IMG/VR virus record: IMGVR_UViG_3300021430_000595
Source of the DNA: a virus
DNA: 64,000 nucleotides
Direction: 5' to 3' (one strand)
Below the pieces are notes generated by a model. It was given only the letters and a program-made list of their open reading frames with translations. It was not told the DNA's origin and did not search any database. Shown here piece by piece: positions 47,372 through 54,866 of the stretch. The position numbers and the translations under genes are program-made. Positions within the stretch are counted from its first letter, which is position 1, and every line of letters starts with the position of its first letter.

Positions 47372-50224
47372 ATGGCAAATTCAAATAGAGTTTTTGTGTC
47401 TCCGGGTGTCTATACTTCGGAAAAGGATTTAACCTTCGTTGCACAAAGCGTTGGTGTAAGCACATTAGGTTTGGTGGGTGAAACCTTAAAAGGTCCCGCT
47501 TTTGAACCTATCCTAATAACAAGTTATGATGAATTTAGGTCATATTTTGGTAACACAAGTCCGTTGAAAGATGGAAATGGTAACCCAAAATATGAATTAC
47601 CTTATTTCGCAAAATCATATTTAGAAGAATCGAATCAATTATTTGTAACAAGAATATTGGGTCTTACAGGTTACAAACCAGTTAAGACATTCGGTATACA
47701 AACAATAGGGGGTATTGTTTTGGGTGATTACAGTGGTTCAACTAGTGGTACTACAGTTCCGACATTAACGGGCGTAACAGGAAGTACATTCTACACCGAA
47801 TTATCTGATAAGGTATCGGTTGATGGTTCTTTCATTACAGATTACATCGTTTCAAATTATAGTGGTAACACATCGGCTCAACACGGTCAATGGTTCGTTA
47901 TGGGTTTAGTACCTGATTCATCTATCGTAAGTTTAACCGCCTCACTTGAGGAAACTTCTCCTTTAACAGGTTTAAGTAACGCAACAAACAATAACGGTAA
48001 AGAATGGTATAACGTACTTGTGAATAACACAAATGATGAAGTTTATTCTTACTTATTTGTTTACAATAGTGGAACATCAGAATTTGATGTGACAAGATTT
48101 ACATATGAAGCATCATTAAATACAGATTACGATGGTAAGGTTGTTGTGGCTTTCAGGTCAAGAGGTTCTTACTCAGGACAGGTTCTTAACTTAGAAGTAA
48201 CAGGAAACACAAGTTTTGTAATTAGTGGTAGTGGTTTATCTGTAAACCCTCTATCTGAATTTACCGTGAATGTTACAGGTTCAACAAGTGGTGCTAAAAC
48301 ATTCACTTGTAGTATGGATAATACATCATCAAAATACGTAACAAAAGTATTTGGTACTGATGTATATGACAAATTAAGAAGTGAAGTTCCGGTTTATGTT
48401 TATGAATCATATCCAAACTTCCTATCTGAAGCATATAAACAAGGTTTTGTTAGAGGTTTAAGTTTAACTGAAGTGTTTGAAGATGATGGTAACTCATTCT
48501 TAACAAGATGGGACACACCAATCTCTCCAACAGTAGTTTCTGAAGTTCGTGGTGGTGAAGTTGATGACCTATTTGATATAATCACAATTTCAGATGGTGA
48601 GTCAGGTAATTATGAAGTTAAAATTTCAATTATCAATATTAACATTGATACAGCAGAATTCGACTTAATTGTTCGTGACTTTAATGATACTGATGATAAC
48701 TTAGTTGTTCTTGAAAAATTCTCAAGATGTTCAATGAATCCTGATTTACCGGGTTACGTTGCAAGAAAAATCGGTACTTCAGATGGTGAATATGAATTAC
48801 GTTCAAGATACATTATGTTATCAATGTCACCTAATCACCCTGTAGATGCATATCCAGCTGGTTTCAAAGGATTCACTGCAAATACTTCTTTTGGTTCAGC
48901 GAAAACTTTAGGTTCGGTGATGTATAAAACAGAATTTTACGATGCCGGTGATACTATAGGTTACGAAGCAGACGGAACACCTATCATATCTTCAGGAGAT
49001 AAAGTAAGAAGAACGTACTTTGGTTTATCAAATCAAGTAAATCAAGTGAGTTTTGATAGAGATTTATTCAAATTTAAAGGAACAAGTGCTGTAGGTTCTA
49101 CGGATGGTTTCCACTTATCAACAAATGCATCAACTATCACAGGTACAACATATCAAACAACATCTTATGATTTAGAAGGTCAAACAGGTGTTGATAACGT
49201 ACTAACAAACATTAACTACCGTAAATTTACATTGGCAGTTGGTGGAGGTTTTGACGGTTGGGACATTTATAGAAATGTTAGAACCTACGGAGATGCTTAT
49301 ATCTTCGGTAAATCAACATATACAAGTGGTAACACAAACAATGGTGGGGTGTTCAACCCAACTGTTGGTAACTCAGATTATTACGCATACCAACAAGGTA
49401 TTGATGTGTTTTCAAATCCTGAAGCGGTTGATATCAATATATTTGCAACTCCGGGTATTAACTTCTATGACCATAGTTCATTAACAGCATACGCAATCGA
49501 CATGATTGAAGAAGATAGAGCGGATTCATTATATGTAATGTCTTCACCTAACTTAACTACAGCTGATGAGGTTATAGATGCGTTAGACGGTGTGTCAATT
49601 GACAGTAACTATTCAGCAACATATTGGCCATGGATACAGGTTAGAGATGTGGATAACGCAACTCAATTATATGTTCCACCAACAGGTGAAGTATTAAGAA
49701 ATATCGCGTTAACCGATAATGTATCGTTCCCTTGGTTCGCAGTAGCTGGTTATTCAAGAGGTTTAGTTAATTCAATTAAAGCATATAAGAAATTAACTCT
49801 TGATGAAAGAGATGACCTATATAAGAATAGAATTAACCCAATCGCAACCTTCGCGGACACAGGAACAATAATTTGGGGTAACAAAACACTTCAAGTTAGA
49901 GAATCTGCGTTGGATAGAATTAACGTAAGAAGATTACTATTGAGAGCAAGAAAATTAATCTCAGCAGTTGCGGTTAGATTACTATTCGAACAAAATGACG
50001 AACAAGTTCGTAATGAATTCTTGAGATTGGTTAACCCAATTCTTGAAGCGATTAAGAGAGAAAGAGGTTTATTTGAATTCCGTGTAACAGTATCTAATGA
50101 CCCAGAGGACATTGATGCAAATACATTGAGAGGTAAAATCTATATCAAACCTACTCGTTCACTTGAATTCATCGATGTTGAGTTCATAATTACACCAACA
50201 GGAGCATCATTTGATAACATTTAA
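47372..50224 (+). CDS. Tail sheath protein (gp18-like)
   Basis: FVSPGVYTSEKD, GPAFEP, YWPW, PWFAVAG, INPI, WGNKTL, RINVRRL, KPTRSLEFI. Confidence 0.96.
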   Translation: MANSNRVFVSPGVYTSEKDLTFVAQSVGVSTLGLVGETLKGPAFEPILITSYDEFRSYFGNTSPLKDGNGNPKYELPYFAKSYLEESNQLFVTRILGLTGYKPVKTFGIQTIGGIVLGDYSGSTSGTTVPTLTGVTGSTFYTELSDKVSVDGSFITDYIVSNYSGNTSAQHGQWFVMGLVPDSSIVSLTASLEETSPLTGLSNATNNNGKEWYNVLVNNTNDEVYSYLFVYNSGTSEFDVTRFTYEASLNTDYDGKVVVAFRSRGSYSGQVLNLEVTGNTSFVISGSGLSVNPLSEFTVNVTGSTSGAKTFTCSMDNTSSKYVTKVFGTDVYDKLRSEVPVYVYESYPNFLSEAYKQGFVRGLSLTEVFEDDGNSFLTRWDTPISPTVVSEVRGGEVDDLFDIITISDGESGNYEVKISIININIDTAEFDLIVRDFNDTDDNLVVLEKFSRCSMNPDLPGYVARKIGTSDGEYELRSRYIMLSMSPNHPVDAYPAGFKGFTANTSFGSAKTLGSVMYKTEFYDAGDTIGYEADGTPIISSGDKVRRTYFGLSNQVNQVSFDRDLFKFKGTSAVGSTDGFHLSTNASTITGTTYQTTSYDLEGQTGVDNVLTNINYRKFTLAVGGGFDGWDIYRNVRTYGDAYIFGKSTYTSGNTNNGGVFNPTVGNSDYYAYQQGIDVFSNPEAVDINIFATPGINFYDHSSLTAYAIDMIEEDRADSLYVMSSPNLTTADEVIDALDGVSIDSNYSATYWPWIQVRDVDNATQLYVPPTGEVLRNIALTDNVSFPWFAVAGYSRGLVNSIKAYKKLTLDERDDLYKNRINPIATFADTGTIIWGNKTLQVRESALDRINVRRLLLRARKLISAVAVRLLFEQNDEQVRNEFLRLVNPILEAIKRERGLFEFRVTVSNDPEDIDANTLRGKIYIKPTRSLEFIDVEFIITPTGASFDNI

Positions 50225-50517: not shown

Positions 50518-51006
50518 ATGGCAGATTTATTAATGAAAATGCCGGTTCCTTATGAACCGAAAAGAGTTAACCGATTCATCCTTAGATTCCCATCATCTTT
50601 GGGTATCAATGAATGGTATGTAGCATCAGCAGCTAGACCTAGTGCAAAAATAAATTCAGTTGCAATTCCGTTTATTAATACTTCAACATATGTTGCAGGT
50701 AGATTTGAGTGGAATGAGATAAGAGTTACCTTCAAAGACCCAATCGGTCCTTCAGCATCTCAAGCATTAATGGAATGGTTCCGTTTACACGCAGAATCTG
50801 TTACAGGTCGTATGGGTTATGCTGCTGGTTATAAGAAAGATATTGAATTAGAAATGTTAGACCCAACGGGGGTTGTTGTAGAGAAATGGATTCTACAAGG
50901 TACATTTATCACTGATTTGAACTTCAACGAACTTGATTATTCAAGAGATGATATCGCATCAATCACTTGTTCATTAAGAATGGATAGATGTATTCAAGTG
51001 TATTGA
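50518..51006 (+). CDS. Tail tube protein (gp19-like)
   Basis: EPKRVNRF, YVAGRFEW, MEW..GYAAGYKKD, W.LQGTF; follows the sheath. Confidence 0.92.
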   Translation: MADLLMKMPVPYEPKRVNRFILRFPSSLGINEWYVASAARPSAKINSVAIPFINTSTYVAGRFEWNEIRVTFKDPIGPSASQALMEWFRLHAESVTGRMGYAAGYKKDIELEMLDPTGVVVEKWILQGTFITDLNFNELDYSRDDIASITCSLRMDRCIQVY

Positions 51007-51067
51007 TTTTTTATTTATACATATCTGTCCATTGTTAAAGTACTTAAAATTCCATATATTTATTTAT

Positions 51068-51955
51068 ATGGAATTTTTTATTTGTAAAATTTGTAAAAAA
51101 GAATGTGACGGATTAATTGGTTTGAGAAGTCACTCTTCGTTATCTCATGGTTTGGATTCAGAAACAATTTATGTTGAGTATATTTTAAACGGAAATAAAC
51201 CAAAATGTGAATGTGGTTGCGGTGGTGATTCTCCGTTTATTTCAATAGGAAAAGGATTTTCAAGATTTATTAAAACACATCACAATCGAGTTCCCGGAAA
51301 AAACAACTTCCACAAAAATCCAGAATCAAAAATAAAATCTGCAAAAACTCAATCTGAAAATTGGAAAAAGGGGTTATATCGTAAATGGTGGGAAGAAAAC
51401 ACCCAAGAAACCAAAAGTAAAATTGAGGGTATAAAAGAAAAGTTACGTAATGATATTGACCGAGGTCGTAAAATATCAAAATCTCTTACCGGTAAAAAAA
51501 TGAATGGTGGGGTTAAAACGAAAATATCCAATTCTCAAAAACAAAGATTAGACAATCCGGAAATAAGAAAAAAAATGTCCGAAAAAAGGGTAAATTGGTT
51601 AAAGAACAAACAAAACAAAAAAAAGACCAAACTTGAAAAAAAATTTGAATCAATACTCGATTTACTAAATTTAAAAAATGAATTTCAACATGAATTCAAA
51701 CATAGGTTATTTGATTTTTATTTAACCGATTACAATATCTTAATAGAAGTTGATGGTGATTTTTACCATTGTAACCCATTATTATTCGAATCCCCAATGT
51801 ATGAAGTACAAAGACTAACACTAAATAACGATAGGTATAAGAATCGAATCTGTAAAAACCACGGAATAACTTTAATTAGGTATTGGGAAAAAGATATAAA
51901 CGAAAATCCTGAGTGGGTAATAAAAGATTTAAAACAGAGGTTAGAAATCATTTAA
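51068..51955 (+). CDS. Homing endonuclease: Zn finger + NUMOD3-like + Vsr/DUF559 (EDxHD-type) domain
   Basis: CKIC..H..H, CECGCG, KISKSLTGKK, FDFYL..LIEVDGDFYH..D..KN..IRYWE. Confidence 0.8.
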   Translation: MEFFICKICKKECDGLIGLRSHSSLSHGLDSETIYVEYILNGNKPKCECGCGGDSPFISIGKGFSRFIKTHHNRVPGKNNFHKNPESKIKSAKTQSENWKKGLYRKWWEENTQETKSKIEGIKEKLRNDIDRGRKISKSLTGKKMNGGVKTKISNSQKQRLDNPEIRKKMSEKRVNWLKNKQNKKKTKLEKKFESILDLLNLKNEFQHEFKHRLFDFYLTDYNILIEVDGDFYHCNPLLFESPMYEVQRLTLNNDRYKNRICKNHGITLIRYWEKDINENPEWVIKDLKQRLEII

Positions 51956-52034: not shown

Positions 52035-52784
52035 ATGGAAGAATTCAGAATAGACCCAACCATTGCGTATGATGTTGTAGAACTACCTTCAAGAGGTATC
52101 CACTACCAAAACAAAAAAAAGTCAATAAAAGTTGCGTATTTAACCGCAGCAGATGAAAATATTTTATCTTCGTCAAATTTAATTGCAAATAATATGGTAA
52201 CTGAAGAGTTACTAAAGAGAAAGATTTTAGACAAAGATTTCCAAATTGAGGAAATGGTTGATGAAGATAAACAAGCAGTTTTAATCTTTTTAAGAAATAC
52301 GGCATTTGGTTCAGAATATACTTTCTATTTAACAGACCCTAAAACTAATGAGGAGTTTACAACAAACATTGATTTATCCGAATTAAAATTCAAAGATTTT
52401 AATTTAGAATCTGATGTGAATGGTGAATACCCATACCGAATGGAAAAGAGTGGTGTTGATATTACATTCAAATTTTTAACTCAAAAACAAATTAAAGAAT
52501 TGGATGAGATTGAAAAAAGTTGGAATGGAAATGGGGTTGCACCTATTGCAACAAAAAGACTTGAAATGATGATTAAATCAGTTGCTGGTAACCGTGACAT
52601 GATGAATATACATAATTTTATCCAAAAATTACCTATTAAAGATTCCCAAGACTTCAGAAAATATGTTAGGGAAAATACACCGGGTTTAGACCTTAAAAAA
52701 ACAGTAAAATCCCCGTCAGGAGAGTCCATGCTAGTAGAAGTCGGATTCGGGGTCGAGTTTTTTCGCCCTTTCTACGGAATATAG
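52035..52784 (+). CDS. Tail/baseplate hub assembly chaperone (T4 gp26-like)
   Basis: VELPSRG..Y, LTAADENIL, D..AVLIFLR..AFG, PGLD..GVEFF; between tube and tape measure. Confidence 0.8.
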   Translation: MEEFRIDPTIAYDVVELPSRGIHYQNKKKSIKVAYLTAADENILSSSNLIANNMVTEELLKRKILDKDFQIEEMVDEDKQAVLIFLRNTAFGSEYTFYLTDPKTNEEFTTNIDLSELKFKDFNLESDVNGEYPYRMEKSGVDITFKFLTQKQIKELDEIEKSWNGNGVAPIATKRLEMMIKSVAGNRDMMNIHNFIQKLPIKDSQDFRKYVRENTPGLDLKKTVKSPSGESMLVEVGFGVEFFRPFYGI

Positions 52785-52917
52785 GAAAGGTCAATTAGAT
52801 GAAATTTTATTTCTAATTAAGAGAGGGTTCTCTTATGGGGATATTATTACTATGCCCGTTTATTTAAGAAGATATTATGTTAGTTATATTATAGAATTAG
52901 AAAATAGTGTTGATTAA
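52759..52917 (+). CDS. Start-less gp51-like chaperone extension in the +1 frame (frameshift product)
   Basis: FFALSTEYRKGQLDEILFLIKRGFSYGDIITMPVYLRRYYVSYIIELENSVD*; in-frame TAG at 52735 and no ATG/GTG/TTG before 52852. Confidence 0.7.
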   Translation, partial: FFALSTEYRKGQLDEILFLIKRGFSYGDIITMPVYLRRYYVSYIIELENSVD

Positions 52918-52937: not shown

Positions 52938-54866
52938 ATGGCGGTTAGACAGTCAACAATAGATTTAGCGGTTAGTGCAAATGGTGGTAGGGGTGATTGG
53001 CCTCGATTCATTGATGAGTATGCTCAAGATGAACGTTTAGATAAAAACAATCCATCAGATTATGCTAAAATTCAAAACGCCTTTAATCAATATAGGTCAG
53101 CACCCCCAAGTTCAAATACAAATAGTGGGGGTGGTAATGTAAAACCAGCGAATGCGTTTCAAAAAATAATGGGTGGTGTTATAGGTACAGCCGCGGATTT
53201 AGCGGGTGCTAGTAAATCACAAGGTTATATGCCGGGTGTTAACGAAGAAATAGCATCTTTAGAATCGATGCTTGGCACATTATTAGATGCTAAAGGTAAT
53301 TTAAAAGATATAAATGACCTTTTTTCCGTTGGTGGTGATTTATTAAAAAACCAAACATTATTATATCTAAAAACCCAAACAGAACTATTAAGACAAATTA
53401 ATAGGGAGGCCGGATTAACAGGTAAATTTTCTGAAGATTTAAGAGATGAATTAACCCAAACAAATCCTGAATTATTAAGAATTGGTATTGGATTTGGAGA
53501 ATTAGTTGATGCCCAAAAAAGTTTAATTTCCGATTCGGGAAGATTTTTAGCGTTAAATAGAGAATCTTGGAAAGAAGCTGGTGTTGCAGCCACGGCATAT
53601 GTTGGTAGTTTATCTCAATTGGTTAGCATGTTCCCCGCATTTGAACAAGTGGGTATCGGAGCATCTGATGTTGCTGAACAAGTAAAAATTGCTGGTGGTA
53701 GGTCAATAGAACTAGGTTTACAATCACAAAAAATAACAGCGGGATTAAAAACGGAAATTGGTAGACTTAATGAGTTTGGTTTCAAAAATGGTGTCCAAGG
53801 ACTAACTGAAATGGTTAGAAAATCAACCGAATTCAGAATGAATATGGATTCGGTATTTAAAATTGCGGATGACCTTTTTGACCCTGATAAAGCAATAAAT
53901 TTATCAGCAAATTTACAAGCGATTGGTGGTGCGATTGGAGATTTCAATGACCCATTAAAGTTAATGTATATGGCAACAAATAATGTTGAAGGATTACAAG
54001 ACGCATTAATCGGAGTTGCGGGTTCTTTAGCAACATACAATCAAGAACAAGGTAGATTTGAAATCACAGGTGTTAATTTAAGGAAAGCAAAAGCAATGGC
54101 TGACGAACTTGATATTTCGTATAAAGAATTAGAAAAAGGTGCAATAGCGGCGGCTGAAAGGTCTTCAGCATCAGCAGCTTTAATGGCGTCAGGGTTAGAT
54201 TTAGATGATGACACAAAAAGATTTTTAACAAATATCTCAACCATGAAGGATGGAAAAATGACAATTCAACTTCAAGGTGAGGAAATGAGAAAAGTTTTTG
54301 GTGCGAATGAAATTGCTTTAGAAAACTTAACATCAAGTCAATTACAGCAATTAAAACAATACCAAGATGAATTTGCTAAGTTAACACCTGAACAAATTAT
54401 TGAAAAACAAGCTACCGATGTTGAAAATATGGAAAGAAATGTCGGTTACATTTTTGCATTACTAAGAAATGAATTTGGTTCAAGTGCTAGAAAGGTAGCT
54501 AAAGAATTTAATTTAGACCCAGCGGCGTTCTTATCCGGTAAAATAAAACAAGCTGCAGATACTGCGGCACCTGTTATCAAAAATCAAGGAGAGAAATTAA
54601 GAAAATATACGACCGAAGTTGCGGGTAAATTAAAATCTCCAGAACCTATGAGTGTCGACAATAAATCTAAAGAAACAAAAACAGAAACCAACACCGAATC
54701 ACAAAAAGTTGCTAGAGTTGAAACTAAAGTAACGGTTCAAGCGAATGATGTGACGGCAAATAGTTTAGCTCAATATTGGATAAAGAGCCCATCAACAATG
54801 AATGATATTGGTAATAGTATATTTGGAGACAAGGGAGATTATACAAGAATACCATTTATTTCATAA
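52938..54866 (+). CDS. Tape measure-like protein
   Basis: Ala/Gly/Leu-rich helical protein after the chaperone genes. Confidence 0.7.
   Translation: MAVRQSTIDLAVSANGGRGDWPRFIDEYAQDERLDKNNPSDYAKIQNAFNQYRSAPPSSNTNSGGGNVKPANAFQKIMGGVIGTAADLAGASKSQGYMPGVNEEIASLESMLGTLLDAKGNLKDINDLFSVGGDLLKNQTLLYLKTQTELLRQINREAGLTGKFSEDLRDELTQTNPELLRIGIGFGELVDAQKSLISDSGRFLALNRESWKEAGVAATAYVGSLSQLVSMFPAFEQVGIGASDVAEQVKIAGGRSIELGLQSQKITAGLKTEIGRLNEFGFKNGVQGLTEMVRKSTEFRMNMDSVFKIADDLFDPDKAINLSANLQAIGGAIGDFNDPLKLMYMATNNVEGLQDALIGVAGSLATYNQEQGRFEITGVNLRKAKAMADELDISYKELEKGAIAAAERSSASAALMASGLDLDDDTKRFLTNISTMKDGKMTIQLQGEEMRKVFGANEIALENLTSSQLQQLKQYQDEFAKLTPEQIIEKQATDVENMERNVGYIFALLRNEFGSSARKVAKEFNLDPAAFLSGKIKQAADTAAPVIKNQGEKLRKYTTEVAGKLKSPEPMSVDNKSKETKTETNTESQKVARVETKVTVQANDVTANSLAQYWIKSPSTMNDIGNSIFGDKGDYTRIPFIS

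Follow-up and report, generated by a model that had tools for sequence, protein, structure and literature searches.

A 64,000-nucleotide (nt) stretch of DNA from an uncultured giant T4-related phage, IMG/VR record IMGVR_UViG_3300021430_000595 (the window, by which we mean the whole stretch that was analyzed) raises the question of how many proteins are made from a single gene of the T4 gp26/gp51 family that lies directly ahead of a probable tape measure gene. The gene ends shortly after a run of six Ts, and a second reading frame that lacks a start codon stays open well beyond the gene's stop codon. Our analyses indicate that a programmed ribosomal frameshift very probably yields two tail/baseplate-hub assembly chaperones from this one gene. 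We consider it highly likely, on the strength of sequence comparison, that recoding of either direction (+1 or -2) is real at this locus.

The chaperone open reading frame (ORF) has the 3' end GTC GAG TTT TTT CGC CCT TTC TAC GGA ATA TAG, with the T6 run at 52758-52763, the CGC codon at 52764-52766 and the 0-frame TAG stop at 52782-52784 (Table 1). The open +1 frame begins at 52738, runs to a TAA at 52915-52917 and has no ATG, GTG or TTG ahead of the ATG of its ...TMPV... segment, deep inside the extension; the -1 frame closes ~12 codons past the run. The predicted products are a short form of 249 amino acids (aa) and a long form of 293 aa by a +1 shift or 294 aa by a -2 shift, with predicted junction peptides of ...VEFFALSTEYR for +1 and ...VEFFFALSTEYR (EFFF-ALSTEYR type) for -2. 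In all of these respects the sequence agrees with a preliminary description of the locus, which had placed a shift at the T6/CGC site, had noted the open +1 frame at 52738-52917, the early closure of the -1 frame and the lack of a +1 start codon until mid-domain, and had predicted products of 249 and ~293 aa.

The locus was compared with 247 related loci for which the boundary of the N-terminal body could be placed. Certain contigs entered the set more than once, and ~160-170 of the sequences are unique. A distant set of 165 loci came from two alignment-seeded scans and one single-protein scan, and some of these loci lie on 330-410 kb contigs; protein P0139, used as a single query for related loci, gave no match. 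The +1 frame was open for at least 35 codons beyond the 0-frame stop in 243 of the 247 loci, and the median open length past that stop was 44 codons in the +1 frame versus 4 in the -1 frame. The four uncounted loci are two that are truncated by a contig end, locus L230, whose extension carries a stop codon 16 nt away from a contig end, and locus L174, in which the +1 and -1 frames are both open and which brings the number of extended loci to 244. L230 (IMGVR_UViG_3300042361_000245) is the one locus with a premature stop in the +1 extension (...EILFLVK*), probably an assembly-end error.

The extension lies in the +1 frame at the same place in all of 80 IMG/VR loci of 73-91% identity, and it is also in the +1 frame in the cultured Flavobacterium phage immuto and Microcystis phage Mel-JY01, both ~32% identical. 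Relatives with a +1 extension range in identity from 91% down to ~30%. Both TTTTTTCG and the +1 overlap, whose conservation had been named beforehand as a check on the proposal, are kept in the orthologues. The tail was in frame in none of the 120 nearest protein clusters and in none of the best 150 of 1785 clusters (50% identity), and nearly all of those database proteins end within a few residues of the shift site.

Among 77 unique close relatives, the entropy by codon position in the 0 frame upstream is 0.67, 0.53 and 1.13 bits, and downstream of the 0-frame stop it tracks the +1 frame (0.93, 0.62 and 1.35); that is, third-position variation follows the 0 frame upstream and the +1 frame after the stop. 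There is no canonical start codon in the +1 overlap of 47 of the 162 unique loci, the window among them. Five unique variants have a +1-frame TAG two codons ahead of the run, and the overlap window left in them, 29 nt, is the shortest seen and starts at the run. Taken over these alignments, the pattern of open +1 frames is far beyond chance.

The gene's family suggests what the extension is. The 249-aa product matches PF12322 ('T4_baseplate', Pfam) at 30.4 bits (cut-off 24.5, E-value 4e-7), the only match to that family in the window's 142-kb record, and its match to phrog_150 ('baseplate hub') spans positions 17-232 of the 282 in the profile (E-value 1.2e-6). With the +1 frame joined at the run, the match to phrog_150 lengthens to positions 17-274 (E-value 4.1e-8, a gain of ~5 bits), and position 274 is reached only by this fused form. 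In T4, gp26 (208 aa, C-terminus ...EFFELL) covers phrog_150 positions 14-235 and gp51 (249 aa) covers positions 13-280. Because of these coverages, gp51 is read here as a gp26-like body plus a tail of ~45 residues, with the shift site falling at the point where gp26 ends. Both T4 proteins match PF12322 end to end and they are mutual paralogues (BLASTP E-value 2e-6).

The homology of the extension itself was examined with hhalign, using 157 aligned +1 extensions and ten Straboviridae gp51 tails, that of T4 included. The two alignments matched with a score of 28.4 (P 1.7e-5) over 37 columns, and the motif Y..[DS][IV][ILM].M.P..[ER]R is common to both. None of 150 column shuffles reached the real score (mean 9.5, maximum 18.1), and the reversed alignment scored 9.2. 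By these comparisons the relation between the extension and the gp51 tail is remote but real. A hidden Markov model of the extension did not match the single T4 gp51 sequence, and BLASTP of the fused product against T4 gp51 gave no match, as identity between the two proteins is too low. An hhalign comparison of the full-length fused alignment with the gp51 alignment gave a weak local match (Prob 12.7), and a region search with the gp51 tail found three close homologues and no more.

Since the extension is homologous to the tail of gp51, and gp26 stops at the matching ...EFF... motif, we regard the short form as the probable equivalent of gp26 and the long form as the probable equivalent of gp51. 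The preliminary description had called the gene gp26-like and the +1 segment gp51-like and had pointed out that T4 has the two as separate genes; family membership and position ahead of the probable tape measure, the lengthened phrog_150 and hhalign matches and the paralogy in T4, respectively, bear these points out. Across 1375 Straboviridae records, gp51 is encoded at full length within one reading frame. PF12322 genes number two in T4, against one each in a 288-kb relative (92% complete), a 413-kb relative (100% complete) and the window's own 142-kb record (CheckV 45% complete). The window gene thus resembles gp26 and gp51 in family and in the tail of its long form, and it differs in being a single gene with a predicted shift, whereas the T4 pair are paralogues encoded on opposite strands, without a frameshift. 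The T4 proteins also have CxxC-type pairs, whereas the window protein has no cysteine, and in T4 neither gene 26 nor gene 51 lies next to gene 29, whereas the window gene stands directly before the probable tape measure.

Two further observations concern the family. Homologues of T4 gp51 (proteins P0275-P0277) carry a precomputed match to Pfam family PF28602.1 beside PF12322, and that family may be a model of the gp51 tail. Many members (P0136-P0274; loci L169-L187) have an N-terminal extension of 100-290 residues plus an insertion, for a total of 400-585 aa; this N-terminally extended group comprises the members with an ...ESLGGGS... motif on 330-410 kb contigs.

The shift site falls into four classes, given here as 0-frame codons. 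Class I, the window type, reads TTT TTT CGN CCN TTC. Class II reads TTT TTT TGG CCT, or TTT CTT TGG in immuto and locus L188, and class IIIa reads ATT TTT CTC or TTT CTT AAT. Class IIIb, which comes mainly from contigs of 330-410 kb, has [GA]TT TTC followed by CTC, CTT, ATC or GGT. In classes I, II and IIIa the run is without exception followed by C or T. The shift-site bases have near-zero entropy, whereas the synonymous sites around them vary. An IMG/VR pattern scan permitting TTY TTY CGN returned at least 120 loci with 94 unique contexts. Although TTY was permitted, both Phe codons are TTT in all 94; TTC makes up 35% of the Phe codons in the window's genes. The Arg codon in these contexts is CGT in 45, CGC in 43, CGA in 4 and CGG in 2, and the same pattern with AGR in place of CGN found no loci in IMG/VR. 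In the window's genes AGA accounts for 479 of 655 Arg codons (73%), and CGC is as rare as had been claimed, occurring 3 times in ~17,800 codons (0.2 per 1000).

A single class I variant departs from this scheme. Locus L202 (IMGVR_UViG_3300025732_002738) has TTC TTT CGC and keeps UUU-C, and it turns the otherwise invariant CCT into TTT, creating a new TTT TTC two codons downstream, as if the slip site had been moved in compensation. A rare Gly codon, GGG (3 per 1000 versus 48 for GGT), is kept 9 nt ahead of the run (window 52749-52753) and makes GGGGT in class I only; it may be a Shine-Dalgarno-like stimulator or a product of chance. As a separate candidate stimulator we considered a hairpin, CCUUUCU...AGGAAAGG, right after CGC and rejected it, since at least 6 pairs form in only 24 of 54 unique relatives, with no compensatory change.

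We hypothesize that most ribosomes read 52035-52784 and make the 249-aa protein, the equivalent of T4 gp26, and that a fraction shift to +1 on UUU UUU CGC and read on to 52917, which would give a 293-aa protein with 50 extra residues equivalent to the T4 gp51 C-terminal tail. In this step tRNA-Phe would sit on the second UUU in the P site while the rare CGC waits to be decoded; it would re-pair one base forward (UUU to UUC), and GCC would be read next. We infer the slip itself, its direction and efficiency and the chaperone role of the products against a background of observed conservation, coding signature, family membership and tail homology. A +1 slip at this window's site is the event that we tentatively favor, at something close to an even chance. 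It is suggested by the Arg codon, which is always CGN at the at least 120 loci and never AGR despite the dominance of AGA, by the rarity of CGC and by the C or T that follows the run in classes I, II and IIIa. Re-pairing at +1 by a P-site tRNA-Phe, from UUU to UUC or UUU with CGN, UGG or CUC as the waiting codon, fits classes I, II and IIIa as well as L202. UUU CGN is also the +1 motif of influenza A PA-X.

Several findings weigh against a +1 slip. At the [GA]TT TTC sites of class IIIb, re-pairing of tRNA-Phe is impossible at +1 (UUC on UCC) but possible at -2. The first Phe codon is fixed as TTT in the 94 contexts just as the second is, which a -2 slip needs and a +1 slip does not, and L202, the sole sequence to lose that first TTT, is also the one that gained TTT TTC two codons downstream. 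CGT is about as common as CGC at the site, and the phage encodes a tRNA-Arg(ACG), so CGC may not be a 'hungry' codon. Lastly, alifold gave no support for the hairpin after CGC, and no conserved downstream structure was found. The slip of tRNA-Phe from UUU to UUC at a rare CGC, as first put forward in the preliminary description, is therefore plausible in itself but is not told apart from a -2 slip; the two directions are indistinguishable from sequence alone, and the comparative data weigh for -2 about equally.

In a -2 shift, the P-site tRNA-Phe would move two bases back onto UUU, UUC would be read as a third Phe codon and GCC would follow, giving a 294-aa long form with ...EFFF-ALS... at the junction. 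We regard this as a serious possibility for the window, if a somewhat tentative one. Re-pairing at -2 is the only kind that is possible at every site type (TTT TTT CGN, TTT TTT TGG, ATT TTT CTC and the [GA]TT TTC N clade), and with tRNA-Leu at the TTT CTT of immuto, L188 and L178. A -2 slip accounts for the fixation of the first Phe codon as TTT and for the loss of that codon in L202 together with the gain of the downstream TTT TTC, and the C or T that follows the run would then be explained by the coding of Phe in the long form. However, few cases of a -2 shift by a single tRNA are known in bacteria or phages. On a U6 run a -1 slip should also compete, giving a dead-end product, and the first site of L202 and those of L177 and L178 (CTA TTT CTY) bar re-pairing of tRNA-Phe at -2, so that L177 and L178 would need tRNA-Leu. 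A -2 slip on the U run by one P-site tRNA as the mechanism throughout the '+1-frame' clades is possible but less likely than not; if true, a homologous U run would serve for -1 shifts in the cyanophage members of the family and for -2 shifts in the giant-phage members, and in T4 gene duplication would have taken the place of recoding.

Transcriptional slippage would require RNA polymerase to drop one U or add two on T6, fusing the frames in some of the mRNAs. Classes I and II do have T6 or T7 runs, and both of their Phe codons are fixed as TTT. The +1 layout is nevertheless kept with TTT CTT T (immuto, L188), with CTA TTT CTT and, in the jumbo clade, with only four Ts, and slippage does not require the strict C or T after the run. 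As the runs of relatives are interrupted or far too short, we consider this explanation very unlikely.

Separate translation of the extension, whether begun at a non-canonical codon or re-initiated past the TAG, has slightly less still to recommend it. Public annotation does treat the segments as two genes (the 47-aa 'gp51-like' ORF of phage Syn9, a TTG-started ORF in Mel-JY01), and T4 gene 26 has a known internal start, annotated 26'. Yet the +1 overlap offers no ATG, GTG or TTG in the 47 unique loci mentioned above, the window among them, the conserved +1 peptide starts at the run and so upstream of the 0-frame stop, five unique variants have the +1 stop two codons ahead of the run, and T4 gp51 has body and tail in one chain. 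Misreading of the homopolymer during sequencing, or decay of the gene through a frameshift mutation, is a negligible prospect even though the site is a homopolymer in a metagenome assembly, given the same frame relation in 244 loci from many independent samples, two cultured phages and non-homopolymer sites, and purifying selection on both frames. Sequencing error, pseudogenisation and independent initiation, two of which (a wrong T count and a start codon of its own) the preliminary description had listed as ways in which the proposal could fail, are thus excluded for practical purposes by the conservation, the codon signature and the pattern of starts and stops.

Recoding of TAG was also considered and rejected. 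TAG ends 6 of 119 long ORFs, the chaperone gene being one of them, and there is no sign of general TAG recoding because reading TAG as sense hardly changes the coding density. The window's 142-kb record has, outside the window, 27 tRNA genes clustered on the minus strand at G000:C1:54795-63823, among them an anticodon CUA tRNA (amber-suppressor type; 'Pyl' in ARAGORN), tRNA-Arg(ACG), tRNA-Trp and tRNA-Phe. None of the 27 was found to have a four-base anticodon. The phage tRNA-Phe(GAA), at G000:C1:63748-63823, has G37 (anticodon loop CU-GAA-GA), whereas bacterial tRNA-Phe normally has A37. The 413-kb relative (L264, L278) has one A37 and one G37 copy of tRNA-Phe, and the 288-kb close relative (L263) has A37 only. 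A G37 tRNA-Phe may bear on slippage at UUU runs and could help to set the slip rate, but its association is inconsistent among relatives. In the 413-kb phage, ARAGORN also reported a tRNA-like gene with a two-base 'anticodon' (tt) and a shortened anticodon loop (L285; G002:C1, ~108-111 kb).

Cyanophages Syn9 and P-SSM2 provide a further comparison. Each has a single PF12322 gene, ending AGT TTT TTC GTA TAA or TCT TTT TTC GGG TAG, with a clearly gp51-like tail in the -1 frame that is reachable by the classical heptamer T TTT TTC. RefSeq lists for Syn9 a 'gp26-like' gene and the separate 47-aa ORF (BSV9_gp12/gp13), with no frameshift annotated. The single family gene, the T6C run at its end and the out-of-frame gp51-like tail are shared with the window; the phasing differs, being T TTT TTC with the tail in -1 in the cyanophages and TTT TTT C with the tail in +1 in the window. 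The U6C run is phased differently by clade, and the shift would therefore be -1 in cyanophages and +1 or -2 in the relatives of the window.

A conserved frameshift in the tail assembly chaperone genes of long-tailed phages, as in lambda gpG/gpGT, was reportedly described by Levin in 1993 and by Xu, Hendrix and Duda in 2004. The window gene resembles lambda G/GT in its shared N-terminal body, in a shift site near the 3' end and, provided that the next ORF is indeed the tape measure, in its position right before it. At the sequence level it has what a two-product arrangement of the G/GT type calls for, namely a conserved extension, a coding signature, the lack of a start codon and a fixed run, and a conserved frameshift near the 3' end would here give two products with a common N-terminus. 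It differs from lambda in that the shift would be +1 or -2, whereas lambda uses a -1 shift on an X XXY YYZ heptamer, a feature that is absent in the window but present in the cyanophages, and in that the protein is larger (249 versus ~140 aa) and of the T4 family. No sequence relation between the window protein and gpG was found.

Slip sites known from elsewhere include the +1 site CUU UGA of bacterial prfB and the -2 site G GUU UUU of the arterivirus PRRSV (porcine reproductive and respiratory syndrome virus). The window resembles PA-X in having UUU followed by a rare CGN codon, with re-pairing on UUC possible, immuto resembles prfB in its CUU U, and the GUU UU(C) run of the jumbo clade is reminiscent of the -2 site. 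Unlike these systems, the window site has neither an A-site stop codon nor a demonstrated Shine-Dalgarno-like or downstream element. The likeness is one of mechanism only, because the systems are unrelated.

The AlphaFold (AF2) model of the short form is of high confidence, with a predicted local distance difference test (pLDDT) value of 88 and a predicted template modelling (pTM) score of 0.81. Searches of the PDB by sequence and with Foldseek found no relative of it. The top three VIA-align matches were YqbN 3klu_A (Z 5.4, root-mean-square deviation 3.8, 84 aa), 3fgx_B (Z 5.3) and the HK97 tail assembly chaperone (TAC) 2ob9_B (Z 4.7, 96 aa). All three are phage tail-assembly-chaperone-type proteins and every Z score is below the tool's reliable level, so that the modelled resemblance to HK97 TAC and YqbN is weak and, because of these weak scores, is a consistent hint rather than proof. 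T4 gp26 and gp51 are listed as 'hub assembly chaperones' in Table 2 of Leiman et al. 2010 (PMC3004832), and the hub-assembly role and the absence of gp51 from the virion are established for T4 only (PMC3004832). Based on this label, the gene position and the lambda G/GT paradigm, we infer that the protein chaperones the tape measure and hub, with the tail of the long form as a possible docking part. If the two products work as lambda G and GT do, the part common to both would cover the tape measure, and the long form's tail would attach it to the hub or tube under construction.

The tape measure itself is the probable identity of the 642-aa ORF that follows. The gene order of sheath, tube, chaperone gene and 642-aa ORF is as in immuto, whose next gene is an annotated tape measure. 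The ORF had no match in Pfam, PHROG or tblastn searches, and it has weak Atlas leads to PF10145 (feature score 0.91, TM 0.42). The tape measure label, which the preliminary description had also used, draws on position, size and weak leads, together with the annotation in immuto. In immuto and Mel-JY01 there is no gene at the slot occupied in the window by the homing-endonuclease-like ORF.

Table 1. Features of the chaperone locus; coordinates are positions in the 64,000-nt window of IMGVR_UViG_3300021430_000595, and all features are on the + strand.
Feature	Position	Strand	Basis
Gene of the gp26/gp51 family, with the short (gp26-like) 0-frame product, 249 aa	52035..52784	+	PF12322, phrog_150
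Putative shift site TTT TTT CGC (two Phe codons and rare Arg codon)	52758..52766	+	Fixed run in relatives
+1-frame extension, 50 codons and TAA, predicted gp51-tail-like C-terminus of the long form	52765..52917	+	hhalign, conservation
Upstream portion of the open +1 frame, without start codon	52738..52764	+	
Probable tape measure protein, 642-aa ORF	52938..54866	+	Position, size, weak PF10145 leads
Tail tube gene	50518..51006	+	phrog_4542 tail tube, E-value 1e-24
Probable tail sheath, 950-aa ORF before the tube gene	47372..50224	+	Position, as in annotated sheath genes of immuto and Mel-JY01
HNH/DUF559-type homing-endonuclease-like ORF between tube and chaperone genes	51032..51955	+	phrog_559 E-value 2e-10, PF04480 E-value 1.6e-4

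Tail assembly chaperone frameshifting is among the most conserved recoding events in phages, and T4 and its relatives have so far been set apart as lacking it, with the roles of gp26 and gp51 obscure. Full-text literature searches found no paper that describes gp26 and gp51 as a frameshift pair, and the public records carry no annotation of such a frameshift. What is known, then, is the tail-chaperone frameshift; what is new is its occurrence in the T4 family, with an unusual direction. Our comparisons point to gp26 and gp51 being the short and the long version of a frameshift-type tail chaperone. If this is true, most T4-related phages outside the Straboviridae make the gp26/gp51 pair by frameshifting. 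The 'truncated gp51' ORFs annotated in marine phages would thereby be explained, and thousands of annotations would be corrected. A family in which a homologous U run gives a -1 shift in one clade and a +1 or -2 shift in another would also be a natural system for the study of slip direction, and the view of gp26 and gp51 as short and long chaperone forms provides a concrete, testable hypothesis for their function.
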